The position numbers and the translations under genes are program-made. This document shows, one piece after another, positions 8,405 to 59,871 of a stretch of DNA of 64,000 nucleotides. The DNA is taken from positions 2,484-66,483 of the forward strand of contig CALXUR010000002.1 in assembly GCA_944391735.1 (NCBI GenBank). The letters are read 5' to 3'. The stretch comes from an uncultured Alphaproteobacteria bacterium (GTDB taxonomy: Bacteria > Pseudomonadota > Alphaproteobacteria > CAAHEQ01 > UBA3637). Under the pieces are notes generated by a model. The model had not been told where the DNA came from. It was given only the letters and a program-made list of their open reading frames with translations, and made no database searches. The stretch's first letter is position 1, and the number at the start of each line of letters is the position of its first letter.

Positions 8405-10367
8405 ATCACTTTTCCTCTTTGACGCTATACGGAATCAGCTTGGCCGGTTACCATCACCGTTGTTGAAAGCTTTGTCGGGCATGTTCCGTTACTTGAAACG
8501 TAATTGGGATATTGCTTTGACAGTTACCCTGACATTGATCGCTTTTTTCTGGCTTTTCGGATTAAGTGTTCTGGATATTTATAATATCGGCCTTGTGTCC
8601 AAAGGGGGGGATTTTTCTGTTTCTTATATGGGGAGCGTCCTGTATCGTATTGACGAATGGCGTTGGCCGATTTTTACACATATGAATCTGGCCTATCCTT
8701 ATGGTATTTCTGTTCACGGAACGGATGGCGGTCCGTTGTTGTCCGTGATCTTTAAATTACTTCATACCGTTTTCGGACTCAGCCCCGAAGTGCAGTTTGT
8801 CGGTATCTGGATGTTGATTTCTTATGTGTTGCAGGCCTATGTATCCGTTTTGATTTTTCGACACGCTTTCAAAAATAAATGGTTGATAACAATAGGTGCT
8901 TTGTTTTTTGTCTCGGCACCGATTATGATGATGCGCGTGTTTGTTCATATCAATCTGATGCCTCATTTTATTCTGTTGTTTGCTATTTTGATGTGGATGA
9001 ATAATCGCTTGGGGGCGAAAGAATGGTTTTATATGGCGGTTTTGATTTCTCTCGGAATTTTGACATGCCCGTATTTTTTGCCGATGCAGGCCGGTTTCTT
9101 TGCTTTGTTATTTTATCAAAAGGTGTGGGTTGAAAAAGCCGTTTCCTGGAAAACCTTGTTGAAAGGAATTGTGATGCTGGCGGCCGTTTTTCTGGGGTGG
9201 TTTTATCTGTTGGGCATGATGACGACCGAACAGGAAATTGCCAGCGGCGGATGGCGTGGTTTGGCGTTGAATCTGACGGCACTGTTTAATCCGATTTGGA
9301 GCCGATCTCAGGTGTTTAATACATTGACTCCTAAAGTCGATTTTGATGCCGATAATTATTTTGGTTTCGGTTTGTTACTGTTATTGTTGTTTTTGTTTCC
9401 CAATGTTAAAGATTTGTTCCGGCGGGAAAATTTAAAAAAACATTGGCCGCTGGCTCTTTTGCTTCTCGGGTTTACGCTTTTTGCCTTGTCGTCTCAGGTC
9501 AAGTGGGGCAAAACAGTCGTTCTGGACTATAAACCCGGTGCTTACATTGATTGGTTGGGGAGTGTTTTCCGCTATTCCGGTCGCTTTTTCTGGCCTGTCT
9601 GGTATTTGTTGGCGTTTTATTTAATTAAGACGCTCGGAACGAAGTTCCCTAAAAAAGCATGGCTGATTTTACCGGCGTTGTTGGCTGTTCAAATTTGGGA
9701 TTTATATCCGACTTATAAAATGAAACAGAGCTTTGTTTTGAACACAAAACCCTATGTCTATCCCTTAAAATCGCCGGAATGGGATCGTTTGACGCGTCAA
9801 TACGACAACGCGTTTATTTTCGCCCATAATAAGAATTATGCCGGCATTTGGCGTTGGGCTATTAAAAATCATAAAAACGTTAATTATGGTTTTTTAAATC
9901 GTCCGTCACGTAAAACGCATGAATTGGTGAATACGGTTCGGGAACAGATTTTATCCGGCTATCTGTCCAAGCGCTTCAATAATTATTTCTTTGTTATTGA
10001 TGAGGATTTGATGAAACGGATTGATCGTGCCGCCCAAAAAAATCCGGCGGTGGCGAAATTAAAATCTCATATCCGGCGGATTGATCAATATGATATTTTG
10101 GAGTATCATCCCGATTTGGAACAAAATATAAGCTATAAAACAAGCTTCATTCCGGTATCTCATCGTTATTGGACGGCTGATTTAATTCAAATAAGTCCGT
10201 ATCGTGTCTATCGATTGGTGGATAATCGAAAGGATTTTGCGACAATCGTTCGTTATGATGATAAAATGCTGGTTTTAGATTGGGATAAATATGATACCGA
10301 AGAGTTTAAAAAAGGAAAAGACAATCGGTATCATCAAGTAGTAAAGCCGGATAAAGATGATAAATAA
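8394..10367 (+). CDS. Large polytopic membrane protein, possible GT-C-type glycosyltransferase partner of the upstream GT2
   Basis: More than 10 predicted TM helices in the first ~430 aa, then a soluble ~200-aa C-terminal domain. Overlaps the GT2 stop by 11 nt, suggesting translational coupling. Confidence 0.4.
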   Translation: MKNKSLFLFDAIRNQLGRLPSPLLKALSGMFRYLKRNWDIALTVTLTLIAFFWLFGLSVLDIYNIGLVSKGGDFSVSYMGSVLYRIDEWRWPIFTHMNLAYPYGISVHGTDGGPLLSVIFKLLHTVFGLSPEVQFVGIWMLISYVLQAYVSVLIFRHAFKNKWLITIGALFFVSAPIMMMRVFVHINLMPHFILLFAILMWMNNRLGAKEWFYMAVLISLGILTCPYFLPMQAGFFALLFYQKVWVEKAVSWKTLLKGIVMLAAVFLGWFYLLGMMTTEQEIASGGWRGLALNLTALFNPIWSRSQVFNTLTPKVDFDADNYFGFGLLLLLLFLFPNVKDLFRRENLKKHWPLALLLLGFTLFALSSQVKWGKTVVLDYKPGAYIDWLGSVFRYSGRFFWPVWYLLAFYLIKTLGTKFPKKAWLILPALLAVQIWDLYPTYKMKQSFVLNTKPYVYPLKSPEWDRLTRQYDNAFIFAHNKNYAGIWRWAIKNHKNVNYGFLNRPSRKTHELVNTVREQILSGYLSKRFNNYFFVIDEDLMKRIDRAAQKNPAVAKLKSHIRRIDQYDILEYHPDLEQNISYKTSFIPVSHRYWTADLIQISPYRVYRLVDNRKDFATIVRYDDKMLVLDWDKYDTEEFKKGKDNRYHQVVKPDKDDK

Positions 10368-11310
10368 TCGTATTTTTCCGGCAACACCCGAACATATTGA
10401 AAAAGGTGCTGAACTGATCCGAGCGGGTGGCCTTGTCGTTATGCCGACCGAAACGGTTTACGGGCTGGGGGCTTCGGCCTATGATGCCCAAGCCGTTGCC
10501 CGCATTTTTGAAGCTAAAAACAGACCGACCTTTAACCCGCTGATTTCTCATATTGCCGATTTGGATTTTTTGCCGCAGTATGCCGAAACGGATGAGCGGG
10601 TCATGGCGTTGGCTAAACATTTTTGGCCTGGACCGCTGACCTTCGTTTTACCGCGAAAGGATATGTCTGCCTCTTTGGATTTGGCCTGTGCGGGATTGAC
10701 AACTGTAACTGTCCGAATGCCGAATCATCCGGTTGCTTTAGCGTTGATTCGTGCCGCCGGAGTTCCCGTCGTGGCACCCTCCGCTAACCGATCCCAAACG
10801 ATGAGTCCGACAACGGCATTACATGTTTGGCAAAGCCTGGGGAATCGCGTGGATATGATTTTAGACGGTGGTGCGTGCACCGTCGGGGTTGAATCCACAA
10901 TTATTGACATGACGGGTCAACAGGTGGTTATGTTGCGGCCTGGCGGTATCTCCAAGGAGGATTTGGAATCCTTTTTGAATGAACCGGTTTTGCTTTCTCA
11001 CGGTAATCCGAATTTACCGAGTTCTCCGGGGCAGATGTTAAAGCATTACGCGCCATCACATGTATTGCGTATCAATGTTGTGAATCCGGATCCGGATGAG
11101 TTTTTTATCGGATTCGGCGATATCGGTGCGGATGCTCCTTTAAACCTCAGTCCCTCCGGTGATTTGAAAGAAGCAGCCAGCCGATTGTTTGACTATCTTC
11201 ACCGGGCGGATGAACAGAATGAGTTTTTAAAAATCGCTCTGGCACCCATTCCCGAAACAGGACTCGGTTTGGCTATCAATGACCGTGTCCGCCGGGCGTC
11301 CTATAAGTAA
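10357..11310 (+). CDS. L-threonylcarbamoyladenylate synthase (Sua5/YwlC type)
   Basis: YrdC-domain motifs (PTETVYGLGA, KNRPTFNPLI, SAN) plus a C-terminal Sua5 domain. Confidence 0.85.
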   Translation: MINNRIFPATPEHIEKGAELIRAGGLVVMPTETVYGLGASAYDAQAVARIFEAKNRPTFNPLISHIADLDFLPQYAETDERVMALAKHFWPGPLTFVLPRKDMSASLDLACAGLTTVTVRMPNHPVALALIRAAGVPVVAPSANRSQTMSPTTALHVWQSLGNRVDMILDGGACTVGVESTIIDMTGQQVVMLRPGGISKEDLESFLNEPVLLSHGNPNLPSSPGQMLKHYAPSHVLRINVVNPDPDEFFIGFGDIGADAPLNLSPSGDLKEAASRLFDYLHRADEQNEFLKIALAPIPETGLGLAINDRVRRASYK

Positions 11311-16883: not shown

Positions 16884-16900
16884 ACCGAAATAATAAAAAA

Positions 16901-16931
16901 ACGGGAAATCTGCGGGTTTCCTGTTTTTTTT
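16901..16931 (+). terminator. Rho-independent terminator of aspS
   Basis: Hairpin ACGGGAAA/TTTCCTGT followed by T8. Confidence 0.7.
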
Positions 16932-17080
16932 GTCATTCTTGTTTTTTTGTTTTCTGTCATCCCCGAGCCTTCCTCTACAGTCATCCCCGACCCCTTTTTA
17001 TTTTTCGTTATTCCCGCCCCCATTTCTATTGTCGTTCCCGCTCCTTTTTTGCCATCCCCGTGCCCTGACACGGGAATCCG
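16931..17080. repeat. Tandem array of about six degenerate ~24-bp units (GTCATCCCCGa-type), ending in a full palindromic copy
   Basis: Units start at 16932, 16956, 16980, 17007, 17031 and 17051. The last forms the hairpin CCCCGTG...CACGGGA. Confidence 0.75.
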
Positions 17081-17259
17081 GTAACACATAAGGCACTATT
17101 CCTGAAAAAGTGAAAATCCCAAGCAAAACTGTAACGAAAAAAGGGTCAATAAAATGTTACAGATTTTGTAACATGAGTGAGGATATGAAGTCAAGAAAAA
17201 AGTGAAAATATAAAAAGACTTCCTGTATTTTGAGAGAAAAGAGGGATAGGATGAAAAAA

Positions 17260-17291
17260 TGTAAAAATTAAATGACCATTAAATTTTTACA
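17260..17291. promoter_or_regulatory. 32-bp AT-rich palindrome (TGTAAAAATTAA-ATGACCA-TTAAATTTTTACA), candidate operator
   Basis: Inverted repeat lies 18 nt upstream of the ATG at 17309. It is 28/32 identical to the element at 57723-57754 in front of the paralogous gene. Confidence 0.6.
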
Positions 17292-17308
17292 GGAAAGGGA
17301 AATGGAAA

Positions 17309-18637
17309 ATGAGAGGAAAAAGAGAGGCGGGGATCCGAGAAGAATCGGGACGTATTTCCACTTTGTCATCCTCGGGCTTGACCCAGGGATCCAGAAACAA
17401 GGAATCCAGAAAGGGTGATGAATCGGGACGTTCGATGGTAGAAATGCTGGGCGTTTTAGCTATCATGGGTGTGTTGGCGATTGGTGGAATAGCGGGGTAT
17501 CGATACGCAATAGACAAATACAATGCGAATGAAATTATCAATGACGTCAAAAAGCGGGCGGTTGTTATTTCGCAACAGTTGGCTGTCGGAGGAAGCGTGG
17601 AAACGCCGGAGTTCAAGCCGGAAACGGAACAGGGATATGGTGTGGAACAGGTGTTGTTGGATGACGGCTTTTTTTCGATTATCATGTCGGATGTGCCACA
17701 AGGTGTTTGTGCGCGGATTGTGGAAACGGAATGGGCTTTGCCGGTGGCGATGTATGCGGGTTCGGTCATGGCGCAAGGGGAGGGCAGTATCTGTCAGGAA
17801 AACAATCGGATGCAATTTGAATTTACGGATGATTTAAGGGCAACGAATGAAAAGCCGGAACATTGCACCAAAAAATCGGATTGTTCTTCCAAATGTGATG
17901 ATTGTATCGACGGTGTGTGTTTGGAAAATTGCCCCGCCGGTCAGGCGTGTGTGCGATCATCAACCGGCAATGTTAGTGTCCCGGATTTGTGTTGCCCGCT
18001 GGATCGCATTATGAATGGTACCTGTTGTGCTTCAATTACTTATAATGATCAAGGAGAAAAATTATGCTGTCAAAGATCAAATATGACAAGTTGTTGTCCT
18101 GAAGGAGAGTTTATGTGGAATGGTCAATGTCACAACTGTGATGACCCTACAGATTTGTATGGAATAGTGGTAAATTTTTACCGTTATTCATGTGATATGT
18201 GTCCCAATCGTGTTTCTGCCGGGTGGCAATGCCTGATAAAGTGTAAGGAGGCAGATCAAGTTGTTTGGAGAGGACGATGTTTATGCCCTGATGAACGGCC
18301 TGTTATGGGGCAGGACGGAATATGTCGTCCATGTGGTTCAAATGGTGTCTGGTCAAGTGCCTCATCTGTATCAACAGTTCACGAAATGGATAGTTGCGGT
18401 GTTGCAGCATGGTGTGGAAATATGTATTGCAGCGGAGGATATGTGTGGGCATGTGCCCCAGGTAAAATAAGTGGTGTTAACGCATTAAAGATAGATGGTT
18501 CTGCTGCTGGTGGCGGTGGATGGGCTTGTTTTTACTGCAATGAGTTACAACTTGATAAATTGAAATACAAAGCACAATGCGAATCGTGCGGCGGGACCTG
18601 GAGCGGTGCTTGGAATGACGGGACTTGTTATCCGTAA
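17309..18637 (+). CDS. Prepilin-type N-terminal domain protein with a Cys-rich C-terminal domain (pilin-like adhesin candidate)
   Basis: ESG|RSMVEMLGVLAIMGVLAIGGIAGY has Gly at -1, Glu at +5 and a hydrophobic helix. I count 34 Cys in the last ~255 aa, including four CC doublets. The start codon is uncertain because repeats lie in the leader. Confidence 0.7.
   Translation: MRGKREAGIREESGRISTLSSSGLTQGSRNKESRKGDESGRSMVEMLGVLAIMGVLAIGGIAGYRYAIDKYNANEIINDVKKRAVVISQQLAVGGSVETPEFKPETEQGYGVEQVLLDDGFFSIIMSDVPQGVCARIVETEWALPVAMYAGSVMAQGEGSICQENNRMQFEFTDDLRATNEKPEHCTKKSDCSSKCDDCIDGVCLENCPAGQACVRSSTGNVSVPDLCCPLDRIMNGTCCASITYNDQGEKLCCQRSNMTSCCPEGEFMWNGQCHNCDDPTDLYGIVVNFYRYSCDMCPNRVSAGWQCLIKCKEADQVVWRGRCLCPDERPVMGQDGICRPCGSNGVWSSASSVSTVHEMDSCGVAAWCGNMYCSGGYVWACAPGKISGVNALKIDGSAAGGGGWACFYCNELQLDKLKYKAQCESCGGTWSGAWNDGTCYP
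17342..17431 (+). repeat. In-frame palindromic-element insertion flanked by 12-nt direct repeats (GAATCGGGACGT)
   Basis: Direct repeats at 17342-17353 and 17420-17431 are exactly 78 nt apart. The palindrome GTCATCCTCGGG...CCCAGGGATCCAG lies between them at 17365-17394. Confidence 0.6.
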
Positions 18638-19390: not shown

Positions 19391-19795
19391 TCAACTTACT
19401 TTTTTATTTTTGTAAAGTAAACTTGTTAAATCAATAACTTGTGCTGTTCTTTGTTCGGCAGGTAAAGGTGCCAGATAATCATATAATGCGAAAACAAGCT
19501 CGATTTTGTCTGTAACTTCCATTGTAAGTTTATTTTTTTGTAGCCAATTTTCAACTGCAATGAAAAACTCTGTCAATATCTCTTTTTGAAGTGCCGGTTT
19601 TTCCGGTATGTCAAATAAATAGTTGGGTGTGATGTCCAAAAAACGACATAGACGCAAAATCATGTCGTGATCCGGATATCGTTCATCTTTGATATACTGA
19701 TTTAATCGGGGGGCACCTATTCCCAATTCTTTTGCCGCCCGATACTGACTGATACCTTTTTTTTGCAAGGCTTCCAATATTTTTTTTCCGATCAT
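19391..19795 (-). CDS. XRE-family HTH transcriptional regulator (CI-like repressor without a peptidase domain)
   Basis: HTH_3 pattern (ISQYRAAKELGIGAPRLNQYIKDERYP). Divergent from the tail-module operon. Confidence 0.8.
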   Translation of the reverse strand: MIGKKILEALQKKGISQYRAAKELGIGAPRLNQYIKDERYPDHDMILRLCRFLDITPNYLFDIPEKPALQKEILTEFFIAVENWLQKNKLTMEVTDKIELVFALYDYLAPLPAEQRTAQVIDLTSLLYKNKKVS

Positions 19796-19836
19796 ATTAA
19801 AAACATATCATATATCTTATTCAAAAACAAGAAATA

Positions 19837-19863
19837 AAATATTTCACACTTTGTGAAATATTT
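19837..19863. promoter_or_regulatory. Operator-like palindrome AAATATTTCACA-CTT-TGTGAAATATTT in the divergent control region
   Basis: Perfect 12-bp arms. Further TTCACA/TGTGA half-sites lie at about 19877-19900. Confidence 0.6.
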
Positions 19864-19924
19864 TTGTTGGCTTGTAGTTCACAATATGTTAATATGTGAT
19901 TTGTGTTACTCATCAGGAGGGTGT

Positions 19925-20578
19925 ATGAACAGATTGGAAAAAAGAAAAAGTTTTATGATGTATGCCAGCTTTATCGCACCGATTCGTTTATTGACGCAGG
20001 CTCAAAAAGGCGATTTACTGGATGCTGTTTTTACGTATCAGGCAACGGGATGCGAACCGAAAATGGATCCGCAAGTGCATATGTGCTTTATGTTTATGAA
20101 GATTCAATTTGATGCGGATAGTGAAAAGTACCGTCAAAAATGTGAGAAGAATCGTGCTTCAATCAACGCAAGATGGCATGCTTCATCCGTATCCGTCGGT
20201 ATGGGAACGAATACGTCACTTACCGATGATAAATGTGATAATGATGATAAAAAGAGAAAATTTTCAGGTGAAAATTTTAAAGAAAAACCACCGCTTCGTT
20301 TGAAGGATTCCGGTTTGGATTTATCCAAAGTTCCCGATTCATTTTATCACATCGCATCTGAAACAGGTTATACGGGGAATGTTGAATCGGCTTATCACTC
20401 CTTTGTTGTCTATTGGAAATCAAAGACCGGATCGGCTGGTAGGCATTCCGATTGGATGTCTGTTTGGCGGACTTGGCTCCGGCGGCGACTTCAATTTACC
20501 GCAAACAATCCGATTAAACAAATGACACAGCATAATATTGATTTTTTTGTTACAAATGCCGGCGGGGACAGCGTATAA
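19925..20578 (+). CDS. Phage-associated protein with a DUF6291-like N-terminal domain
   Basis: Pattern FMMYASFIAPIRLLTQAQKGDLLDAVFTYQATG...KYRQKCEKNR. AGGAGGG RBS before the ATG at 19925. Confidence 0.4.
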   Translation: MNRLEKRKSFMMYASFIAPIRLLTQAQKGDLLDAVFTYQATGCEPKMDPQVHMCFMFMKIQFDADSEKYRQKCEKNRASINARWHASSVSVGMGTNTSLTDDKCDNDDKKRKFSGENFKEKPPLRLKDSGLDLSKVPDSFYHIASETGYTGNVESAYHSFVVYWKSKTGSAGRHSDWMSVWRTWLRRRLQFTANNPIKQMTQHNIDFFVTNAGGDSV

Positions 20579-20631
20579 AAACAAACGAACAATTTCAAAC
20601 TGCCTTTGATATTTTAACGGCTTATTACGGA

Positions 20632-22077
20632 TTGCCTGCCTGGGAATTAAAGCCGAAAGAAGGGCAAAGCAGAGAGGAAATTATCCGCATTTGGTGTATT
20701 CCCGAATATGCTCAAGTGTGTAAATATTTCGGACGATTGTCCAAAACAGGTTTGGCACCGGATAAAATCGTTGTTGCCCGTTGGTTTAAAGAAGATACAG
20801 CACCCTTTTATAAAGGAAAACGTATCACGGCATCTGTTGCCGAACTCAAAGCAATGGGGGAAGGATCGGTTACGCTCAATATGGGAGGTATTCAATATAA
20901 AGCTTCTTTGAATTTGTCTTCTGTAACCTCTTATTCCGATGTCGCCTCGGCGTTGCAAACGGCTATCCGTTCAAATGTGGAGGGCGGCGAAATGTATGCC
21001 AAGTCAACTGTTGTGTTCAACTCCGTAACGGGCGGACTGATCGTAACGGCGGGTACTTCCGGCAAGGATGCCCTTATCGATGCTGTTGAACAAGCCGATA
21101 CGGGCTTTGATTATGCTGCGCCCTTGGGATTGGTCGAGGCCGAGCTCTCCCAAGGTGTAGATGCCGAAAAATTTTCGGATTTTTGTGATCGCATTTATCA
21201 TGCCAATGTGGCCGGTTTCAGTATCACGACTATGGAAACATTAACGCGGGATGATATCACAGCCGCCGTCAATTGGCTTCAAACGGTTCAGAACGGCCAA
21301 ACGTATAACACGCGCGTTCGTTTGGTCTTTAATGTTAATGATTTATCTGAAGCCAAAGCCATTCAATCGGATCTGTCCGATATGACGGGCTATGTGATGT
21401 GTTATGATCCGTATGGCGAGTTCATCAATGTGTTGGATTGCTCTATTTGTGCCAGTATAGACCATAATGTTGTTAACGGTAGTATTAACTTTAATTTTCA
21501 ACCCGCCGCGGGATATACGCCGGTTACGGATTTGGGAACGGTCACGGATTATCAATCCGGTCAGACAAATGTTGTTTTGTGGGATGATTTGAATACCCAT
21601 AAAATTTCCTGTGTGTATTCGGTCGGTTTTGGTTCGGCGGAAACAACGTATTATGGAAAAGGATTGATGCAGGGGGCTTTCGGAACCGAAGACGTTCAGG
21701 TCAATGAATCCTGGCTGGAAGAAGATATTCAGGTGCGTGTCATGAACGCTTTTAATACACTGAATAAGGTTAAATTACAAGGACAGGATGCTGTTGAATT
21801 GGTCAGCACTCTGATCGCCCCGTCTTTTGAAAAAGGAAAACAAAATGGTTCAATTGCTCGAAATGGCACACTGACGGATAGTGATCGCCTGAGCATTGTT
21901 CAGGCAACCGGTGTCGCGGCTGCTCCGGATGCGGTGGCTAACAACGGTTATTATTTCAAGGTTCAGGAATTGACCGCGGAAGACATCGCCGAACGACGTG
22001 TCCGGATTGTTTCCTGTTACCTGTGCGGCGGTGTTGTCAATGAAATTCGGATTATCAACAATATTTATGGTGCTTAA
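20632..22077 (+). CDS. Phage tail sheath-like structural protein (DUF3383-like)
   Basis: 481 aa, immediately upstream of tube, chaperone and tape-measure genes. Sequence pattern (ARW...GxV/I...[31 protein letters not shown]) resembles my recollection of the DUF3383 family. Only a TTG start is available. Confidence 0.5.
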
Positions 22078-22088
22078 GGAGAATAATA

Positions 22089-22553
22089 ATGGATACAGTT
22101 GCTATTTCATCAAACGGAACCGGTTTTACAACCTGTTCCTATTCTTTAACGGCTCTGCCGGTCGTTTCATATATGAAATTACAAGGCTTTGCCTCGGACG
22201 GCGTGTCGTGGGACGATATTGAACCGGCCGCGATCAGTATCGGTGCCGACGGTTTGGCCTCCGTTAATCAAAAACCCGTTTTATATACGGGCACGTTTAC
22301 ATTAAAAGCCAATTCGAACAGTCGTAATGTGTTGGATATGTTGGTTGATGTCGCAACGCCGGCACATGGAAAACCGGCAACATCCTATGAAATTGTTTTG
22401 ACGGAAAAAAACAGCCTGACCGGTTTTACATATGTTTATACCGGTGGTTTGATTACCTCCGCTTCGGGGGGAAATTCTGCCAATATGGAAGACGGGCAGG
22501 CGGATAAAACATATAAAGTCACGTTTACATCCCGGACAGCGATGCCGATGTAG
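22089..22553 (+). CDS. Phage tail tube-like protein (DUF3277-like)
   Basis: 154 aa, beta-rich, directly after the sheath-like gene and before the chaperone and TMP. Confidence 0.5.
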
Positions 22554-22600
22554 ATTTTTAAGGGGCGGCAACGCCCCTTTTTATAAATGGGGAAATTAAA

Positions 22601-22990
22601 ATGGAAAATACGAAAATCATTGAAATTGATGATATGGGCGATGTGAAAAAGTTCCGTATCCGTTTGTTTGATGTTTTGGAAGGCTTGGATTTTTTGGATG
22701 AGGCTGTCGGCCGGATCAGCGGTAAAGAAAAGGTGACGATTAAGCCGTTTTTGTCAACTTTGGTAAAGCTGGCTGTTCCGTTGGATACATCCGGCACAAT
22801 GCCTTTGTTGGGGGAGGAGCGTTTTCTGACACTTCAGGAAGCCTCTGTCTTGGTTAAGAATCCCTTGACCTTAATTGAGTTGGGATTTCGAATTTTGGAG
22901 TTTCAAAAGGTTTTTATTCAAAGCTCGCCGCACTTCCAAGGCTTGATCCGAACGCTCGAAGAAAAGTTGAATATCAAGATTTCGGATTAA
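22601..22990 (+). CDS. Tail assembly chaperone (G-like short form)
   Basis: 129-aa acidic protein immediately upstream of the tape measure gene. Confidence 0.55.
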   Translation: MENTKIIEIDDMGDVKKFRIRLFDVLEGLDFLDEAVGRISGKEKVTIKPFLSTLVKLAVPLDTSGTMPLLGEERFLTLQEASVLVKNPLTLIELGFRILEFQKVFIQSSPHFQGLIRTLEEKLNIKISD

Positions 22991-23145
22991 ATAATGCGGT
23001 GGGCAATATTTTAACGGGAGAATGCTCCGTTTCGGATTTAAAACAGATGGACTTGCGAGATTTTTGGATGCAACAGGTTGTCGGTTATGTCAATCAGAAA
23101 AATGAAATCGTTTTTTTTAATTTAAGTAAAAAGGTTGGAAAATGA
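22601..23145 (+). CDS. Tail assembly chaperone, -1 frameshift extended form (GT-like)
   Basis: The -1 frame is open from 22879 to the TGA at 23143-23145 and overlaps the TMP ATG as ATGA. It encodes ...NAVGNILTGECSVSDLKQMDLRDFWMQQVVGYVNQKNEIVFFNLSKKVGK. Candidate slip region is AAAAGGTTTTTA at 22905-22916, with no canonical heptamer. Confidence 0.4.
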
Positions 23146-24485
23146 GCGAACAAAATACAAATGGTCTGACTCTTGAAAAACTAAAGGCTTTTCAAAGCGC
23201 GCTTGTGACGTGGCGCGGTAAAATAGCCGCTGCGTTGGACACAATTCAAAAAACGGTGTCTGCCTCCTTTGCCCGTATGACGTTTGTCGGGTTTGAACGT
23301 AAACTGGGGGGGGGTCTGAAAGAAAAGTTACTCTCCTTTGGCACAAAAATATCCGGTATTGGTAAAAGTTTTTTAAATTTTTCCGATATTGTTCGTAACG
23401 TGCTTGTCGGATTGGGCAATCTTGTTTCACCGACGCGCCTGATTTCCGGTTTGTCGGCTCTATACGGTTACGCCCGTCAGACAGCTTATGTGGCCGAACA
23501 AACAGGTTTTTCCATCGGGGAGGTCAGTCGTTTTCAAAATCTGCTTGGCCTGTTCGGCGGCTCTGTCGAAGATACCGCCTCTTCTTTGTTACAGTTGCGG
23601 CGGGTTTTTTCCGAGTTGGAAACAACAAACGTGGTTGATGCCGTTACGACTCTGCGTGTTCGGTTAAAAGGTTTGACGGACACAGAACGAACAAATCAAG
23701 TGTCCGGATTGGGAATTGATAATCCGGCACTGTTGCGACTGTTGCGCATTTCTGATGAAAGGTTTAATCAGCTATCGGTAACGGCCGGTCGTTTTTGGGA
23801 TATGAACGAAAGAGGTGTGCAATCCGTTGAAGTTGTTCAATCTCTGCTCGCGCGGATTAAGTTGTTGTTTTCCGGAATGGGGTATGTTTTGGCGGATGCG
23901 ATTTTACCCTATGTTGAATCCATCAATCATGTCATGGAAAATAACGCCGGTTTGTTAAGTGGTTTGAAAGGTATTATCCACGGTATTGTCGGATTGGTTG
24001 CCGGTGTGGTGCAGATGATATACCAAATCGGATATGTTGTCGGGGCTGTGATAGGAAGTACTGTCGCCGCTGTGGATGGGTTATACCGTCGTATTGTTGC
24101 TCTCGGGCAGAAAATCGGCTCTTTTATCGGGGATGCGGCTTATCATGTTACGGCGTTTGTTCGGTCAATTCCAACTTTGATTCAAAAGGCTTTGTCATAT
24201 ATTTTATCTTTGGTCGGTCAAATGTGGGATGAACTTAAGTCTCTTCCGGGGATAAACTGGTTAATCGGTTCGGATGATAAAAAGTCTCACACGTTACCCA
24301 TGCGCGGTAAAGCCCGGGATATTATTTCAAGTTATTCGGATTCTCAAACAATTCGAAATGAAGGCGTGACAAACAATACGCGTAATACATTTCATATTAC
24401 TGTTCAAGCGTCCGGCGATCCCGATCGGCTCAGTCGTGAATTGGGCGCCGTTATTCGTCAGAATGCAACGGGGGTCAGACCATGA
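23142..24485 (+). CDS. Tail tape measure protein
   Basis: 447 aa, helical N-terminal two thirds, Gly/hydrophobic-rich C-terminal segments (GIIHGIVGLVAGVVQMIYQIGYVVGAVIGSTVAAV). Canonical position after the chaperone pair. Confidence 0.7.
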   Translation: MSEQNTNGLTLEKLKAFQSALVTWRGKIAAALDTIQKTVSASFARMTFVGFERKLGGGLKEKLLSFGTKISGIGKSFLNFSDIVRNVLVGLGNLVSPTRLISGLSALYGYARQTAYVAEQTGFSIGEVSRFQNLLGLFGGSVEDTASSLLQLRRVFSELETTNVVDAVTTLRVRLKGLTDTERTNQVSGLGIDNPALLRLLRISDERFNQLSVTAGRFWDMNERGVQSVEVVQSLLARIKLLFSGMGYVLADAILPYVESINHVMENNAGLLSGLKGIIHGIVGLVAGVVQMIYQIGYVVGAVIGSTVAAVDGLYRRIVALGQKIGSFIGDAAYHVTAFVRSIPTLIQKALSYILSLVGQMWDELKSLPGINWLIGSDDKKSHTLPMRGKARDIISSYSDSQTIRNEGVTNNTRNTFHITVQASGDPDRLSRELGAVIRQNATGVRP

Positions 24486-25030
24486 TATCTGTGCAATACT
24501 TATCTGAATTGTTTAATAAAAAACCTGTCTATGCAGTTTGGCATATCAGTGACGCCCATCCGACCGGAGAGTTGATTATGTCTTTTGACAGTATTCAACG
24601 TGTCGATTTTAAAGCGTCATCGACCTTGACGAATTATCCGATTGAACAGGGAACCGCTGTAACTGATTATAAATACAATAACCCGGATACTCTTTCTTTG
24701 ACGGGAATCGTTTCCAGAACGGGATTATATCATGGTGTCGGATTGGGCGTCGTTGATTCGGATACGGCAATTGATAAAATCAGACAGAGTTTGGATACGT
24801 ATCTGAAAGGTATTTATCGTTTAAAGATACAGACAAAAAACGGTGTGTATGATTGGTTTACGCTTCAATCGTATGATATTTCCGAAAATTATGAGAATTA
24901 CGGCTTGTTTGAAGTTGATATGTCGTTTCAACAAATTATGCGCCCGCCCTCTGTTCAAAATCCGGCTCAGGCCGCTTATGCTGATACCTTATCCGTGGGC
25001 GTTGTTTTGAAAAAACTTTTTTCCGAATAG
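24482..25030 (+). CDS. Tail tip/baseplate adaptor-like protein
   Basis: ATGA overlap with the TMP stop. Motif NYPIEQGTAVTDYKYNNPDTLSLTGIVS resembles tube-fold distal-tail/hub N-domains. Confidence 0.4.
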   Translation: MISVQYLSELFNKKPVYAVWHISDAHPTGELIMSFDSIQRVDFKASSTLTNYPIEQGTAVTDYKYNNPDTLSLTGIVSRTGLYHGVGLGVVDSDTAIDKIRQSLDTYLKGIYRLKIQTKNGVYDWFTLQSYDISENYENYGLFEVDMSFQQIMRPPSVQNPAQAAYADTLSVGVVLKKLFSE

Positions 25031-25038
25031 GTGTCTCT

Positions 25039-25341
25039 ATGACTAAATATGCAATTGAGTTAAACCAAACACCAAACCAATCTTTTTCTTTTGATGCCGG
25101 AAATAATGTCATTGATATGCATCTGCGCACAACAACGGAAGGAGTTCTGTATGCGGATGTTTCCGTTGATGGTGTTCCTGTCTTTTTCGGAAGAACGTGT
25201 TGTCATAAAATGCCGTTGTTTTTGACACAGAGAATTCGCGGTAATCTCTATTTTGAAGATCGTTATGGTAACGATGATCCGGATTACCGCGATTTTAATG
25301 ACCGTTTTATGTTAATTTATGATGATGGGTATGTATTATGA
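25039..25341 (+). CDS. Small tail/baseplate protein (hypothetical)
   Basis: 100-aa ORF tightly packed in the tail operon. Its stop overlaps the next start. Confidence 0.4.
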   Translation: MTKYAIELNQTPNQSFSFDAGNNVIDMHLRTTTEGVLYADVSVDGVPVFFGRTCCHKMPLFLTQRIRGNLYFEDRYGNDDPDYRDFNDRFMLIYDDGYVL

Positions 25342-25730
25342 CTCCGACTTGGTCTGTTCCTAAAAGATATTTGCGTTTAAACCTGTATGACGGCCGGCTT
25401 TCAGAACAGGAACGCCGTTTGCTTGTGGCGGTTGATGCCTGTTTTAAAGTTTCGTTTTCGGCACGCGCCTCTATTTCCGGATCGGTTCAAAGCGCGGATA
25501 TCACGTTGTCGGGTCTCCGTCGGGACATTATTTCCTATCTGGTGACGGCCTATACGACTTTTTCCGAACGTCAACTTAAAAATAAGATTGAAATAACGGC
25601 CGGATTTGATAATCGCCACGGTATGGTTTTCTCCGGAACCGTCGCCGAAGCCTCTCCCTTGTTTGACACGGCGGATTATGGTGTGAAGCGGATGCGGATT
25701 CAGGTGCTTATGTCGGATTTGGAGATTTAA
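25338..25730 (+). CDS. Baseplate hub-like protein (short)
   Basis: 130 aa. Pattern ADITLSGLRRDIISYL...IEITAGFDNRHGMVFSGTVAEA is reminiscent of hub/gpD-like N-terminal domains. Confidence 0.35.
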   Translation: MTPTWSVPKRYLRLNLYDGRLSEQERRLLVAVDACFKVSFSARASISGSVQSADITLSGLRRDIISYLVTAYTTFSERQLKNKIEITAGFDNRHGMVFSGTVAEASPLFDTADYGVKRMRIQVLMSDLEI

Positions 25731-25747
25731 CCGTTTCCGGATGTTAT

Positions 25748-26251
25748 GTGTATACGGGGGACGATGAAACCTATAACAGTGCCGTCATTCGGTGGTCTGT
25801 TCAAGGTTATGTTGATACCTCCGCCTTACAAGATGAGTTTGATTACGAGTATTATTTCATCGGAAACACCGTTCAGAATCAATTCGCTTTGGATATCTCT
25901 GCCGTCACGGAAAATCTGAATGAAAAATTGGATTGTAATCTAAACAATGCCACGGATGTCGGTCGATCAAATATCACACATTTATGTGTTCCGGATTATA
26001 GCCGGTTGGAATCCAAAACGGATGGTATCGATTATACAGCGGAACAAGACGGCTTCATTGTTTGGCAGGGTAAAATTGTTCACAGTTATAATACATATGC
26101 TTTAAAGATTAACGATGTAGAAATCGGATGGGCCTCTAATGAGGATTGGACAAGTTGTTGCTGCCGATGCGTTTACCCGATTGCCAAAGGAGATAAATAT
26201 CATTCAACCGGTAGTAATTATTTTGCGTTTTGTCCTGTGCGAGGGGCTTAA
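25748..26251 (+). CDS. Short tail fibre: N-terminal anchor plus knob module (paralog 1 of 4)
   Basis: GTG start. The C-terminal ~110 aa shares LNxKxDxxLNN...(C/W)(V/G)(I/L)PDYS...DG(F/Y) and terminal F.P..G motifs with the three downstream genes. Confidence 0.5.
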   Translation: MYTGDDETYNSAVIRWSVQGYVDTSALQDEFDYEYYFIGNTVQNQFALDISAVTENLNEKLDCNLNNATDVGRSNITHLCVPDYSRLESKTDGIDYTAEQDGFIVWQGKIVHSYNTYALKINDVEIGWASNEDWTSCCCRCVYPIAKGDKYHSTGSNYFAFCPVRGA

Positions 26252-26301
26252 CCGTTCATGAACGTCGATATAACGGTTTATTCATATAAAGGAGAAATAT
26301 A

Positions 26302-26607
26302 ATGAAAAAATATGCAAAGATAGTCAATGATAAAACAAAGGCCTGTGAAGTCGGGATTGGAACGAATAAAACATTTTATAAATCTATCGGAATGACAGAA
26401 CTGGATGTCGAACAAGCCTTCGATGGAAACTGGTATCTGACGGGATATGCACCCTCTGCGCCGGAACACGGTTACGCGGAAAAGCGATCTGCCGCGTATC
26501 CGTCAATTGCCGAACAATTGGATATGTTATATTGGGATAAAGTAAACGGCACCTCTGTTTGGATTGATACAATCGATGGAATTAAGTCGAAATTTCCAAA
26601 GGAGTAA
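26302..26607 (+). CDS. Small phage protein, possible fibre assembly/chaperone-like
   Basis: 101 aa with an AAGGAG RBS. Motif AAYPSIAEQLDMLYWD. Located between fibre-module genes. Confidence 0.35.
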   Translation: MKKYAKIVNDKTKACEVGIGTNKTFYKSIGMTELDVEQAFDGNWYLTGYAPSAPEHGYAEKRSAAYPSIAEQLDMLYWDKVNGTSVWIDTIDGIKSKFPKE

Positions 26608-26609
26608 AA

Positions 26610-26993
26610 ATGAGTAAAGATATCGATTATGGTTCTATTTTGGAATCACTGAATGGAAAAATAGATCTGGATATGAACAATACCGGCTCTTCCGGAAAAT
26701 CAACTGCAGTTGGTTGGGGTATACCTATGTATTCAACAGCCGTATCCAAGTCTTGTAATACGGAATATATATCCGATTTAAATGGATATGTATGTTGTTA
26801 TACAAATTATAGTTCAGCTTCTCATAATCAAAGTTTGTATATTGGTGGTGTGTTAATTCAACATGTTGGGACAGATATTGTATACGGGGCGACTTCAGTG
26901 TTTGCACCGGTAAAAATAGGGCAAACATATAAGATTGAAACTTCAGGAAATAAAGTTTTTACCATGTTGTTTATTCCTTGTTCAGATAGTTAA
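26610..26993 (+). CDS. Fibre knob module protein (paralog 2)
   Basis: ILESLNGKIDLDMNN...GWGIPMYSTAVS...LNGYVCC...FIPCSDS. Own AAGGAG RBS. Confidence 0.5.
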   Translation: MSKDIDYGSILESLNGKIDLDMNNTGSSGKSTAVGWGIPMYSTAVSKSCNTEYISDLNGYVCCYTNYSSASHNQSLYIGGVLIQHVGTDIVYGATSVFAPVKIGQTYKIETSGNKVFTMLFIPCSDS

Positions 26994-27093
26994 CTTAAAA
27001 ATATTCGTCGACTATCTTTGTGATGTGAAGTATCACGATGGTGACGAAAGATAGGAATAGTTGTGTTATACTGAAATTTTAAAGGAGCTCTAG

Positions 27094-27471: not shown

Positions 27472-27499
27472 TAAATTCGTTGGTGTTTGGGGGCGTGCC

Positions 27500-27883: not shown

Positions 27884-27897
27884 AAATGTGTGTGTAT

Positions 27898-28218: not shown

Positions 28219-28219
28219 C

Positions 28220-28248
28220 TTGACTTTTTATTCAAAATATGCTATAAT
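28220..28248 (+). promoter_or_regulatory. Near-consensus sigma70 promoter TTGACT-17-TATAAT
   Basis: -35 at 28220-28225, -10 at 28243-28248. Begins 2 nt after the holin-like stop. Confidence 0.65.
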
Positions 28249-28260
28249 CCAATTTAGTTA

Positions 28261-28289: not shown

Positions 28290-28291
28290 AT

Positions 28292-28316: not shown

Positions 28317-28331
28317 ATGAAAGGAAAGCTC

Positions 28332-29080: not shown

Positions 29081-29081
29081 G

Positions 29082-56113: not shown

Positions 56114-57715
56114 TTATTTTTTACATACGGCACCAATCCGATCCGACCAACTGGCTCCTTGATTATAACTGGCTTGATAAAAAGGAGCGTACCAACACCC
56201 AAAAGATTGACCAGTCCAGTCGTATCCATTGAGCCATGTACAACGCAGTGCACCGGTAGATGTTGCATTGTTTGTCAGCATTAGAATAGCTGCTCGCATA
56301 TTTACATTTTCTATTGTTTGGATAACACCTCCAATGTCTGCAGATGTTGGGGTTTGATATCCTTGTGCTTCACACCAACTAAGGGCATTGATCCAACAAA
56401 AACTACCATTGGATGGACGAGATATAACATATCCGTTTAATAATTCTTTTAATTTTTTTCTAATGTCAGCTGCTGTAACGGTTTTGGGATCTCCGGCAAA
56501 ATAAACAGCCTTTAAAACCGATTCTTCATCCCAGTTTTCAGGAAAATATTCTGTAGATAATGCTTTGTATCGTTTTAATAATTCCTCGTCCGACAAAGAT
56601 GTGTTGCCGTCTTCATCTGCTTCGATTCTTCGACAGCTTCCGTCTCCTGTTTCAAATTTGCTAACTCCGTCGGGAACACATTCTTTGTAACTATGGAAAT
56701 ATCCTTTATCACATTTGACCTCGGAACATTTCTTTAATAAATTGGGGTTACGAAAAACGTCTTGAGCCGTTTTTCCTTGGATACAATGTTCACACTCTGT
56801 CCCGTTCCAAAAGAAACCGTTTGCTTCGTTACACAAACAAGTCGTAGCATTGGGACCGATAGAGCCAAGAGATTCCTCTGGGCAAGGTGTGCAAACGCCA
56901 TTATTGATATAAAACCCATCGGGACAAACACATGCTCCCGTATTTAAATCGAATACATTCGGTTCGTTACATTCACAAGCGGTTGCGTTTGTTGTCGTTG
57001 TCGTCATATTTTCGGGACAAGGCAAGCACTCCTTGGTTTCCTCATCAATGAAGTGATTTAACGGACAGTCGCATGATCCGGAAGAACAAACTTCATTGCC
57101 CATACACATACGTTCACATTGTTGATAAACACAGATTTCACAATTTTCTACAGGACAATCTTCATCCGAAACACATCCTCGTTTACTGGGATTAAACGGG
57201 ATAGACCGTCCATGTAACTCATCATCAAAAACAAAAGAGAGTAAAGCATCACCTTCAGGGCATTGGGGATGTGGATAACTATCTGTATCTTGAACTAAAT
57301 TCCAATAAATTTTAACAGGAAGATCCCACTCTAGCTTTAAAATATGGCTACAAACATCTTGGGGAACTTGATCAACATTCACGACAAAAAATCCAGAAGC
57401 ATGAGGATGAAGTTCTTGAGTTGTCGGAAAAACACCTTGAATTGTCGGCAAAAATTCGCTTTCATTCAATTCATCATCTTTTCTGTCTGTTGCCATTCTT
57501 TGAGCCGAAATAAGCAGTGCCCTTTGTTTAACCTCGTTGACAATATCATTAGCCATTCTTTTATTAACTAAATATCGATACCAAGTAATACCGCTCAGGC
57601 TTAATATACCGATAATCACCAGAACACCCAGCATTTCCACCATCGAACGACCCGATTCGTTTTTTAACATCCGTGTATCTTTCTTAAGTCCTTGTTTTTC
57701 TGTCATTTTTATCAT
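56114..57715 (-). CDS. Prepilin-type N-terminal domain protein with Cys-rich repeats and a lectin-like C-terminal region (paralog of 17309..18637)
   Basis: NESG|RSMVEMLGVLVIIGILSLSGITWY. Shares the pilin head region (VPQDVC...LEWDLPV). About 25 Cys in a ~190-aa stretch with a repeated C.CNE.N.F...G.C..C unit. The start may be the ATG at 57706. Confidence 0.7.
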   Translation of the reverse strand: MIKMTEKQGLKKDTRMLKNESGRSMVEMLGVLVIIGILSLSGITWYRYLVNKRMANDIVNEVKQRALLISAQRMATDRKDDELNESEFLPTIQGVFPTTQELHPHASGFFVVNVDQVPQDVCSHILKLEWDLPVKIYWNLVQDTDSYPHPQCPEGDALLSFVFDDELHGRSIPFNPSKRGCVSDEDCPVENCEICVYQQCERMCMGNEVCSSGSCDCPLNHFIDEETKECLPCPENMTTTTTNATACECNEPNVFDLNTGACVCPDGFYINNGVCTPCPEESLGSIGPNATTCLCNEANGFFWNGTECEHCIQGKTAQDVFRNPNLLKKCSEVKCDKGYFHSYKECVPDGVSKFETGDGSCRRIEADEDGNTSLSDEELLKRYKALSTEYFPENWDEESVLKAVYFAGDPKTVTAADIRKKLKELLNGYVISRPSNGSFCWINALSWCEAQGYQTPTSADIGGVIQTIENVNMRAAILMLTNNATSTGALRCTWLNGYDWTGQSFGCWYAPFYQASYNQGASWSDRIGAVCKK

Positions 57716-59868: not shown

Positions 59869-59871
59869 GGC

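Follow-up and report, generated by a model that had tools for sequence, protein, structure and literature searches.

What kind of protein begins like a prepilin and ends in a domain crowded with cysteines? This question was raised by an open reading frame at 17309..18637 (+) of the window, by which we mean the whole 64-kb stretch of DNA that was analysed (64,000 nt). The reading frame starts with ATG and encodes 442 amino acids, of which 36 are cysteines: C134 and C162 lie in a small head, and the other 34 fall within residues 185–442. The Cys density of this 258-aa part is 13.2%, as compared with a mean of 0.8% and a maximum of 3.4% among the 37 other proteins of the window. Its four CC doublets start at residues 228, 239, 253 and 262, and CxxC sites lie at residues 196, 274, 295, 339, 407 and 424. 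An earlier note on this DNA had given the length of 442 aa, the 34 C-terminal cysteines, the four doublets and the CxxC patterns, and all of these figures held on recounting.

The layout is that of a modular pilin in the sense of Raynaud et al. 2021, who define the class by an N-terminal pilin module joined to an additional C-terminal one that is not peculiar to T4P biology: a pilin module at residues 41–184 is followed by the Cys-rich module at residues 185–442. Plain pilins of about 125 aa with the same leader offer a comparison. Our main reading, to which we assign a probability of roughly 0.6, is that the product is a modular (bimodular) type IV pilin-like protein in which a carrier is fused to a disulfide-rich module. 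The features on which the argument draws are collected in Table 1.

Table 1. Features of the locus and of the second family member in the window. Positions are those of the window; the arrow marks the putative cleavage site.
Feature	Position	Strand	Remarks
Five tandem repeats of ~24 nt	16947..17066	+	core GTCATCCCCG; between the aspS terminator and the gene
Leader peptide, aa 1–40	17309..17428	+	ends E38-S39-G40; putative cleavage after G40, from the sequence
In-frame segment of 78 nt within the leader	about 17354–17431	+	15-nt direct repeats 17339–17353 and 17417–17431
Pilin module, aa 41–184	17429..17860	+	hydrophobic α1-N RSMVEMLGVLAIMGVLAIGGIAGY with Glu+5, ~50-residue α1, small β-sheet head, C134/C162
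First cysteine knot of the C-terminal module, aa 185–214	17861..17951	+	CTKKSDCSSKCDDCIDGVCLENCPAGQAC; conserved; 5′ boundary of the variable core
Hypervariable core, aa 215–417	17952..18559	+	four CC doublets; flanks conserved
C-terminal cap, aa 418–442, and stop codon	18560..18637	+	LKYKAQCESCGGTWSGAWNDGTCYP; conserved; 3′ boundary of the core
Second family member, 533 aa, 32 Cys	56114..57715	-	leader MIKMTEKQGLKKDTRMLKNESG↓RSMVEML

The class III signal and the pilin module

The N-terminus reads GDESG40↓R41SMVE45MLGVLAIMGVLAIGGIAGY, with Gly at -1 and Glu at +5. A hydrophilic leader, Gly(-1), about 20 hydrophobic residues and Glu +5 make up a class III signal. The motif E(-3)-x-G(-1)↓R-S-M-V-E(+5)-M-L-G was kept in 117 of 120 homologues, 53 of the 120 having ESG before the cleavage site, and it also occurs behind leaders of 6–19 aa (e.g. 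MREESG↓RSMVEML). The +1 position is held by Arg in all 117 motif-bearing homologues, not by a hydrophobic residue (Phe/Met). In pilins the +1 residue is hydrophobic and commonly N-methylated (Phe or Met). Arg at this position is atypical among pilins and, to our knowledge, no functional pilin carrying it has been reported.

At 40 aa the leader of this protein is unusually long. Apart from the 78-nt in-frame segment it is a typical leader of 14 aa, MRGKREAGIREESG, and processing of this allele with its inserted repeat could be impaired. We considered whether the true start is the Met of SMVEML, the long leader then being an ORF-calling artefact. This was rejected because the preceding Gly-Arg-Ser is conserved at the protein level across homologues with independent short leaders.

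Pilin signatures were matched below their thresholds. PF07963 (N_methyl) scored 12.7 bits on this protein, at the right location, against a cutoff of 21.2, and TIGR02532 scored 10.5–14 bits on short family members against a cutoff of 16.3; the sub-threshold pilin HMM matches over α1 also included PpdA/PpdD, GspG and GspH. In this protein, the second paralogue and nine relatives, searches of Pfam and NCBIfam yielded pilin-signal matches below threshold and no domain covering the Cys-rich part. The conserved cleavage-site motif and the matches over α1 uphold the class III (prepilin) signal that the earlier note had proposed; its own counter-proposal, that the N-terminus might be an ordinary signal anchor, was not borne out, since the prepilin motif is conserved while the leader varies. 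In the literature we found no paper containing the motif RSMVEML and none linking RF32 Alphaproteobacteria to pili.

The pilin module was modelled with AF2 at a pLDDT of 86.2, giving a helix over mature residues 3–52 followed by strands. The model shows a predicted pilin fold of 'lollipop' shape, with an α1 of about 50 residues, an antiparallel β-sheet and a putative C-terminal disulfide. When the PDB was searched with Foldseek, the top 12 matches were all type IVb pilins, including CofA (9iuf), TcpA (8uhf) and PilS (3fhu), at E-values of 0.012–0.6, none of them significant (best CofA 9iuf, 0.012), and with TM-scores of about 0.4 normalised to the target. A family-profile search of PDB sequences returned a sole match, TcpA α1, at E 0.39. 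Invariant in the family are E5, L7, G8, L10, L16, C94 and C122 in mature numbering, the last two being the Cys pair C134/C162 of the precursor.

The cysteine-rich module and its hypervariable core

Within the C-terminal module, 17 Cys columns are invariant and 12 further ones are at least 90% conserved, and the Cys count is even in 97 of 119 homologues. This even, conserved pattern implies about 17 disulfides, which would be made in the periplasm; the module is predicted to fold as a stack of small β-hairpins. The core carries one copy of a CxxC...CxxCxNR...CxxxC repeat (aa 274–312), and the family ends in the consensus C.xC..T/W...C.

For the Cys-rich module of this protein, Pfam gave no match at E ≤ 1, and its matches in relatives were only sub-threshold ones to DUF5874, DUF7323 and EGF_Teneurin. 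The module alone had no phmmer match in the PDB, and Foldseek found nothing significant either in the PDB (best E 0.8, probability at most 0.05) or in BFVD (best E 0.025, probability 0.51). With Pfam, the PDB and BFVD blank, the possibility that the module belongs to a characterised bacterial family, which had been raised against its novelty, was not borne out. The best of the non-significant Foldseek matches were the CRDs of DR6, DcR3 and 4-1BB and the ectodomain of EphA4. The likeness to furin-like and EGF-like repeats and to VSPs that had been suggested earlier survives only as a weak, non-significant likeness to cysteine-rich domains of the TNFR/Eph type. The module does resemble TNFR/Eph CRDs, furin-like/EGF repeats and Giardia VSPs in its Cys density, its CxxC motifs and its predicted rod of disulfide-stapled β-hairpins, but there was no significant profile or structure match to EGF, furin-like, TNFR CRD, Giardia VSP or GCC2_GCC3, and the resemblance is one of analogy only.

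Searching 1.84e9 representative proteins with the C-terminal module gave 34 matches, none of them eukaryotic. Twenty-two were read, of which 20 had the pilin leader or module or were fragments with the same repeats and two were spurious; the remaining 12 were short fragments, outside the sequence reading. Homologues of the protein at E ≤ 1e-3 numbered 345, and the GTDB species representatives held at least 557 relatives, the best 80 of which all came from MAGs of gut Alphaproteobacteria. A MAG may carry up to 8 or more copies, and every copy seen was a complete gene with its own leader. Short pilins (120–150 aa) with the same leader are abundant, with 5433 matches. The second paralogue in the window carries another kind of Cys-rich module together with a distinct C-terminal domain, and its sole family-model matches were sub-threshold (N_methyl, E 0.078; PpdA-like NF007800, E 0.014). 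Neither this paralogue nor the multigene family figures in the earlier note. We conclude that the clade-restricted modular pilin family with a hypervariable disulfide-rich display module is new.

The sharp bounds of the variable core emerged from comparison between strains; the earlier note had not mentioned such a core. Strains that are about 98% identical have no common DNA similarity over codons 215–417. Against the orthologous allele in L089 the core gave no blastn similarity, whereas its flanks were 98.9% and 97.7% identical, and the strain-to-strain alignment stops at 17951. In protein identity the core reaches 33–38%, as against 90–97% for the N-terminal module. The first cysteine knot is 93–100% identical among P0001–P0003, the C-terminal cap has 94.7% DNA identity to the gene at a paralogous locus in L088, and core segments are common to different paralogous loci. 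These comparisons showed, at the level of sequence, that the core is a cassette between conserved arms, exchanged among strains and paralogous loci. A genome therefore holds many alternative heads, which populations vary. The variation is consistent with diversifying selection acting on a surface structure, be it ligand-binding or antigenic.

Such an arrangement has precedents. In the R64 PilV shufflon and in Neisseria pilE/pilS, a conserved pilin N-part is joined to recombined C-segments that alter binding specificity or antigenicity. Here too, conserved arms surround a replaced core and segments are common to paralogous loci; unlike in those systems, a recombinase, sfx-like repeats, a G4 element and silent promoterless cassettes were not identified, and exchange was deduced from comparing strains, not seen within a clone.

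The DNA around the gene was also considered. A sixth, diverged copy of the GTCATCCCCG repeat lies within the leader-coding region (17364–17377), and the motif has 4 matches in the window, all at 16955–17377, against 0.19 expected. In the 500 nt upstream of family genes its enrichment is about 12-fold, yet only 11 of 108 genes have it; being local in the window and found at so few family genes, it was rejected as a genome-wide or family-defining element. Linkage to the neighbouring phage-tail cluster was likewise rejected, since other family members lie in unrelated contexts.

Peptidase, machinery and rival readings

An A24 prepilin-peptidase gene was present in all relatives examined, in the fixed context yqeY–A24–rodZ, with 46–100% identity across relatives. 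The enzyme scores 56–63 bits for PF01478 (cutoff 26.5) and lacks PF06750, that is, it consists of the catalytic domain only. PilD-type enzymes have an N-terminal PF06750 domain. The new N-terminus is therefore probably unmethylated, consistent with the invariant Arg at +1. In L088 the A24 gene lies 4.5 kb from the family gene P0003, whose N-terminal module is 96% identical to the one studied here, and in the MAG BRZ_KG bin33 it shares a single 233-kb contig with the family member L019. Neither the 64-kb window nor the 83 kb of its scaffold that were examined contain it, and look-ups by exact sequence identity in the window's own sample, ERZ28613925, did not retrieve it.

The rest of a pilus machinery was sought more widely. 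A type IV filament system comprises an assembly ATPase (PF00437), a platform protein (PF00482) and, in diderms, a secretin (PF00263). None of the three, the ATPase being of PilB/GspE/TadA type, turned up in the window, in a 19-kb extension of its scaffold on both sides, or in 1.56 Mb of clade loci, a sample of less than one genome equivalent that is biased towards pilin neighbourhoods. Regular-expression scans of the window and 101 loci were directed at A24, secretin, Flp/TadE and T2SSE Walker A motifs; they detected no T2SSE-type Walker A or secretin motif in the 1.56 Mb and recovered 13 of 13 A24 genes. Nor was an ATPase or secretin gene seen near about 110 family genes, and where the surroundings of large and short family members were annotated with Pfam, the A24 peptidase was the sole machinery gene found. 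Each family pilin gene, and likewise the peptidase gene, stands alone. In one related MAG a DsbA-like gene adjoins a short family pilin. The earlier note had asked for a search of the genome for a prepilin peptidase, pilus machinery and a periplasmic disulfide system. The peptidase occurs in every relative examined and the DsbA-like gene of one related MAG bears on the last; ATPase, platform protein and secretin were not found in the sampled DNA.

These results bear on a rival reading in which the signal would serve export and anchoring only. After A24 cleavage the α1 helix would hold the protein in the inner membrane, or the protein would form no more than a short periplasmic or pseudopilus-like stub, much as in T2SS pseudopilins or the archaeal 'bindosome' proteins, which have pilin-type signals. 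The place of action of the Cys-rich module, perhaps a receptor or scaffold, would then be the envelope instead of a long pilus. A peptidase in a housekeeping context outside any pilus operon, the solitary family genes, and the lack of ATPase and secretin both near the family genes and across the 1.56 Mb favour this reading. We nevertheless consider it unlikely, because strain-level replacement of the cassette and a wide range of paralogues typify surface structures that are exposed to diversifying selection, and not periplasmic proteins, because the abundant ~125-aa pilins with the same leader resemble filament subunits, and because the machinery search spanned less than one genome equivalent.

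The conserved A24 peptidase also weighs on a second rival, an uncleaved signal anchor or Sec signal on a tethered or secreted Cys-rich protein unrelated to pilins. The scores of PF07963 and TIGR02532 under their curated cutoffs and the atypical Arg at +1 would suit it. It is nonetheless highly improbable, given that Gly -1 and Glu +5, the positions read by a prepilin peptidase, and also Glu -3 show almost no variation in the 117 of 120 homologues while leader length and sequence vary, that the predicted α1 and β head match type IVb pilins first, and that the peptidase is conserved in the clade.

Least credible of all is that the Cys-rich module is an effector (defensin-like, toxin-like or antimicrobial) released by filament-related secretion and not an adhesin: disulfide-rich, hypervariable and paralogous are traits common to some toxin and bacteriocin families, and weak sub-threshold actinodefensin and Ntox6 matches occur in another pilin-like class of related MAGs, but these matches are non-significant and absent from this protein, no adjacent immunity-like gene was seen, and the module is part of one polypeptide with a full pilin module, the junction showing no obvious processing site.

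Relation to known pilins and proposed display of the head

The modular pilins of Streptococcus sanguinis, PilB (vWA module) and PilC (lectin module), belong to a catalogue of more than 1,200 proteins in 264 architectures, from which many more are likely missing where modules have no signature (Raynaud et al. 2021, PMC8179133). Like PilB and PilC, the protein studied here consists of a small N-terminal pilin module that carries a class III signal and a large C-terminal one, which in theirs confers binding. In contrast to them, its 34-Cys module has no database signature and belongs to a multigene family with a hypervariable core, and its leader, with Arg at +1, scores below thresholds of the IPR012902 type.

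Structurally, the best matches, though weak, are the type IVb pilins TcpA (Vibrio cholerae), CofA (ETEC) and PilS (Salmonella Typhi), whose leaders are likewise variable and longer and whose +1 residue is other than Phe. Additional C-terminal domains are present in CofB and TcpB, which occupy the pilus tip (PMC8179133). Compared with type IVb pilins, the head here is smaller (~145 against ~190 aa), the genes lie outside a type IVb operon and the peptidase lacks the PilD-type N-domain; the C-terminal module is unrelated to the β-repeat and lectin domains of CofB.

In its catalytic-domain-only architecture the peptidase resembles the TadV/CpaA enzymes of Alphaproteobacteria. Alphaproteobacterial Flp leaders end in K-D-E-S-G↓A-T-A-I-E-Y, and (D)ESG before the cleavage site also occurs in this family. 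Flp pilins are helices of about 50 aa without a globular head, whereas the protein studied here comprises a globular head plus a module of 258 aa, and its motif is G↓RSMVEM and not the G↓xxxxEY/F of the Flp/Tad (type IVc) class. Pfam gave no Flp_Fap (PF04964) or TadE (PF07811) match, and no Flp/TadE-type ORF, G↓xxxxEY/F gene, tad ATPase or secretin was found in the sampled loci.

Under the modular-pilin reading, the precursor would be inserted in the inner membrane, and the clade's A24 peptidase would cut after Gly40 and remove the 40-aa leader, as the motif and its context suggest. Residues 41–184, to judge from the predicted structure, would serve as a small type IVb-like carrier for the fused 258-aa, 34-Cys module, whose ~17 disulfides would form in the periplasm. 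By analogy with PilB/PilC and CofB/TcpB, the pilin module may dock in a filament or short pseudopilus of ~125-aa pilins with the same leader. Docking would expose the Cys-rich module as a binding head that resists proteases, with a swappable cassette as its core and many alternative heads per genome. This head may act as an adhesin displayed at the tip, conceivably with a eukaryotic target, and the family probably supplies variable surface-binding tips.

A more far-reaching proposal, which we put forward tentatively as possible without calling it likely, is a system of pilin-based surface variation in uncultured gut Alphaproteobacteria: dozens of full-length genes would share one carrier with Arg at +1, processed by a non-methylating core A24 peptidase, and would swap their hypervariable disulfide-rich heads by segmental gene conversion between paralogous loci, serving to switch binding specificity or to evade host IgA or phage. 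Bacteria would thereby possess an equivalent of Neisseria pilE/pilS or of protist VSP-type variation, and the system may help them to attach to a partner such as host epithelium, mucus or a gut protist.

Type IV filaments are known to gain new functions through modular pilins, whose catalogue depends on database signatures (PMC8179133). The leader and module of this family evade all signatures tried, despite hundreds to thousands of genes. Its hosts are widespread uncultured Alphaproteobacteria of the human and ruminant gut, and work on the reduced-genome order Rs-D84 of gut Alphaproteobacteria may offer a context for their lifestyle (PMC12306168). The conserved arms around a hypervariable core make the genes a handy strain-tracking marker for metagenomics. 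If our reading is true, E-x-G↓R-S-M-V-E-M-L is a new variant of the sorting signal, paired with a distinct A24 peptidase, and the module represents a disulfide-rich fold family without detected relatives, whose invariant Cys pattern suits structural study. A recombination-driven, variable surface repertoire could then account for the way in which these bacteria adhere to hosts or partners, or escape their notice.

The pilin-like protein and its family

The ORF at 17309–18637, described in the earlier note as a pilin-like protein with a Cys-rich C-terminal domain, was confirmed to be real, and the interpretation offered there was partly supported. Its product contains 36 Cys, namely C134 and C162 in the N-terminal part and 34 in residues 185–442 (258 aa, 13.2% Cys); the mean is 0.8% in the 37 other window proteins. 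The protein has four CC doublets (at 228, 239, 253, and 262) and six CxxC motifs. Since the upstream aspS ends with a strong terminator-like hairpin (16895–16930), the pilin-like gene is probably transcribed as a unit of its own. The window carries housekeeping genes of ordinary kinds, an N-type ATPase operon, and a phage-tail-like cluster; it belongs to a 184-kb ENA metagenome scaffold.

The N-terminus reads ...GDESG40/R41-S-M-V-E45-M-L-G-V-L-A-I-M-G-V-L-A-I-G-G-I-A-G-Y, in which the slash, as below, marks the predicted cleavage site. Among 5.8 billion proteins searched, 345 homologues were found, none with precomputed Pfam domains. Among the best 120 of these 345, E(-3)-x-G(-1)/R-S-M-V-E(+5)-M-L-G-x-L-A is present in 117, behind leaders of 6–126 aa (median 19). 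The Gly-Arg-Ser ahead of the first Met in 'MVEML' is coding sequence subject to selection, because it is kept in homologues with short independent leaders (MREESG/RSMVEML, MQNKNNETG/RSMVEML, and MTEIKMENG/RSMVEML). This conservation bears out the proposed class III-type N-terminus rather than a plain signal anchor, and an ORF-extension artefact is ruled out on the same ground.

PF07963 scored 12.7 bits on the window protein (cutoff 21.2), and the TIGR02532, PpdA/PpdD, GspG, and GspH models stayed below their own cutoffs in family members, all at the expected residues. AlphaFold2 modeling of the pilin module (aa 41–184; 77-sequence alignment; mean pLDDT 86.2) predicted a helix over mature residues 3–52, counted from R41, followed by beta-strands. 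Foldseek ranked type IVb pilins 1–12 in the PDB, including the ETEC CofA filament 9iuf (E 0.012, probability 1.0), TcpA 8uhf, and S. Typhi PilS 3fhu; as none reaches E 0.001, these matches are suggestive, not significant. By sequence, the family profile matched only TcpA alpha1 in the PDB (E 0.39). Invariant columns include E5, L7, G8, L10, L16, and the Cys pair C94/C122 (mature numbering), which sits where the usual pilin disulfide lies. In these models, the N-terminal 145 residues look pilin-like.

Across GTDB species, each represented by a single genome, the peptide pattern MVEMLG[VT]L occurs at no fewer than 594 sites, 557 of which were confirmed as relatives. All 80 loci listed from these sites come from uncultured 'Alphaproteobacteria bacterium' MAGs, sampled from ruminant or human gut where the record title names a source, with up to at least 8 copies per MAG. 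All pilin-like genes examined are solitary. The second member in the window (leader ...KNESG/RSMVEML), flanked by TPR-methyltransferase and 2-hydroxyacid dehydrogenase genes, has a Cys-rich region different from that of the first and an extra C-terminal domain without a Pfam match. Related MAGs also encode a second class of large pilin-like proteins (540–760 aa; N-terminus ...G/S-I-M-V-E-V-I-A-V-L-G-L-L-G-V-M-G), possibly minor pilins; the L059 gene is preceded by one whose 591-aa product weakly matches a ConA-like lectin. The short pilin of locus L070 is matched by 5433 database proteins, the best 120 of which are almost all 120–150 aa; short pilins of this size are plausible filament subunits.

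Coordinates of features in the window and in related loci (L-numbers)
Feature	Location	Remarks
Pilin-like gene	window 17309–18637 (+)	442 aa
Second family member	window 56114–57715 (-)	533 aa, 32 Cys
Tandem repeats	window 16947–17066	~24 nt x5, core GTCATCCCCG; directly upstream of pilin-like gene
Phage-tail-like cluster	window 19391–29624	directly downstream of pilin-like gene
N-type ATPase operon	window 59822–64000 and L087:6268–13215	AtpR, ATPase_gene1, then a, c, b, alpha, gamma; beta/epsilon further on
A24 peptidase gene	L088:11824–12510	~228 aa, catalytic domain only; 4.5 kb from P0003
A24 gene, clade relatives	L090–L101, mostly at about 10001–10700	between yqeY-dnaG-rpoD and rodZ-prfA-prmC
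Short 'plain' pilin	L070:5382–5780	sheep-rectum MAG RGIG6380; 132 aa, same leader, two Cys
DsbA-like thioredoxin-fold gene	L070:6075–6944	adjoins short pilin; PF01323, E 2.5e-21
Second-class large pilin-like	L054:13715–16000 (-)	weak GspG-model match
Second-class large pilin-like	L059:1140–2768 (-)	weak GspG-model match
Second-class large pilin-like	L066:18164–20248 (+)	weak GspG-model match
VirD4-type gene	L084:16993–19215	
VirD4-type gene	L090:19371–20687	
VirD4-type gene	L098:20040–20696	

The Cys-rich module and its variation

AlphaFold2 predicted many short beta-hairpins in residues 180–442 (53 sequences; pLDDT 84.3). Seventeen Cys columns are invariant and 12 more at least 90% conserved, and the number of Cys is even in 97 of 119 homologues, which argues for a fully disulfide-bonded module. 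The unit CxxC...CxxCxNR...CxxxC occurs once in the window protein (aa 274–312) and in up to at least four copies in larger paralogues. The earlier note found this region more reminiscent of furin-like/EGF-like repeats and protist variant surface proteins than of any bacterial pilin; we found no match to a well-characterised bacterial family. Pfam and PDB sequence searches gave nothing significant, nor did structure comparison with the PDB and BFVD, in which TNFR-type and Eph cysteine-rich domains were the best PDB matches (E at least 0.8). Searched exhaustively with phmmer, 1.84 billion representatives gave 34 matches. Among the 22 inspected at sequence level, 20 either have the pilin leader or module or are partial sequences sharing the repeats, and two are spurious; the remaining 12 are short fragments.

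N- and C-module identities are discordant between relatives: 96% and 40% for the window protein versus P0003 (locus L088), 67% and 80% for P0003 versus P0005, and 49% and 54% for the window protein versus P0004. At the orthologous locus L089, the P0002 gene likewise lies between aspS and an HTH gene with phage-tail genes. At DNA level the flanks are 98.9% and 97.7% identical to the window and the gene's first 640 nt 90.6%, and window 17952–18559 (codons 215–417) shows zero blastn similarity to L089, the match restarting at 18560. Over its 3′ half, the L089 core matches the family gene in the NfeD-rpoD slot of L088, which is a different locus, at 94% identity, and other family genes at 77–83%. 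The orthologous and NfeD-rpoD loci have arms in common (91.5% identical 5′, 94.7% 3′). Because the core is replaced between flanks and its segments are common to several loci, we conclude that it behaves as a cassette swapped between strains and between paralogous loci; the conserved arms could serve as homology for exchange.

Within window 17339–17431, 15-nt direct repeats (GAAGAATCGGGACGT / GATGAATCGGGACGT), spaced by exactly 78 nt, flank an in-frame 26-codon segment of the leader peptide. Minus this segment the leader would be a typical 14 aa (MRGKREAGIREESG), and the same or a longer insert is present in close relatives. Translated repeat-like stretches (GMT..., SSSGLTR...) also occur in leader-coding regions of other members. 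The 14-nt core pattern of the upstream tandem repeats has four window matches, all within 16955–17377, three in the array and one in the leader-coding region. This repeat segment differs between strains otherwise 98% identical (blastn gap 16941–17125). In other MAGs the motif is 12-fold enriched upstream of family genes, yet present at only 11 of 108.

Processing enzyme, machinery, and neighboring genes

The clade-specific A24 prepilin peptidases score 56–63 bits against PF01478 (cutoff 26.5) and lack the PF06750 N-domain. We found 195 homologues at E ≤ 1e-5; in each locus inspected the order yqeY, A24, rodZ-prfA-prmC is constant (46–100% identity). This fixed context in every relative examined makes A24 probably core to the clade. 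Immediately upstream, the NfeD-rpoD slot is repeatedly occupied by either a family pilin gene or a gene lacking Pfam domains. The earlier note's reading implied a prepilin peptidase; one is encoded in all relatives inspected, once on the same contig as a family member (L019, on a 233,048-bp contig of MAG BRZ_KG bin33), and exact-sequence look-ups retrieved none from the window's own sample. In the division between PilD and TadV/CpaA enzymes, a prepilin peptidase with the catalytic domain only is not expected to N-methylate. A non-methylating A24 enzyme would fit the invariant Arg at +1.

The window, a 19-kb scaffold extension, and 1.56 Mb of clade loci yielded no ATPase of the PilB/GspE/TadA type, no secretin, and no gene of the Flp/TadE type; the same scan recovered all 13 A24 genes of those loci. 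As this sample is biased and smaller than one genome equivalent, it establishes neither absence nor presence of a filament machine. Genes for VirD4-type coupling proteins (T4SS-DNA_transf) recur in clade genomes, in one case with a short pilin 6.6 kb upstream; the clade DNA sampled showed no VirB11-type ATPase.

The phage-tail-like cluster encodes an HTH repressor-like protein (-), DUF6291, a sheath resembling E217 gp31, a tube resembling gp32, a tape-measure-like protein of 447 aa, Dit-like and Pam3_gp18-like proteins, and a SleB-type (Hydrolase_2) lysin. Among its ORFs, a minority of which were profile-scanned, none for a capsid, portal, or terminase was apparent; the cluster may be a tailocin or the remnant of a prophage. 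The orthologous locus in L089 has ~1.8 kb of extra genes. An Fe-hydrogenase gene lies near the N-type ATPase operon, and the two fit an anaerobic, fermentative gut alphaproteobacterium.

A probable modular pilin

The best-supported reading of the window protein is a modular pilin, in which a type IVb-like carrier module, processed by a prepilin peptidase, would display a hypervariable, disulfide-stapled head. The principal alternative is that the protein is anchored, or displayed as on a pseudopilus, with no long pilus. S. sanguinis PilB/PilC and CofB/TcpB are established examples of the modular pilin concept, whose authors predicted many undetected architectures of this kind (PMC8179133). New here are the Cys-rich module itself, the atypical signal with Arg at +1 that falls below InterPro-type thresholds, the pairing of this signal with a distinct, clade-wide A24 enzyme, and the multigene, cassette-swapping organization. 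As a modular pilin, the protein may be displayed at a tip and may act in adhesion, perhaps toward a eukaryotic target.
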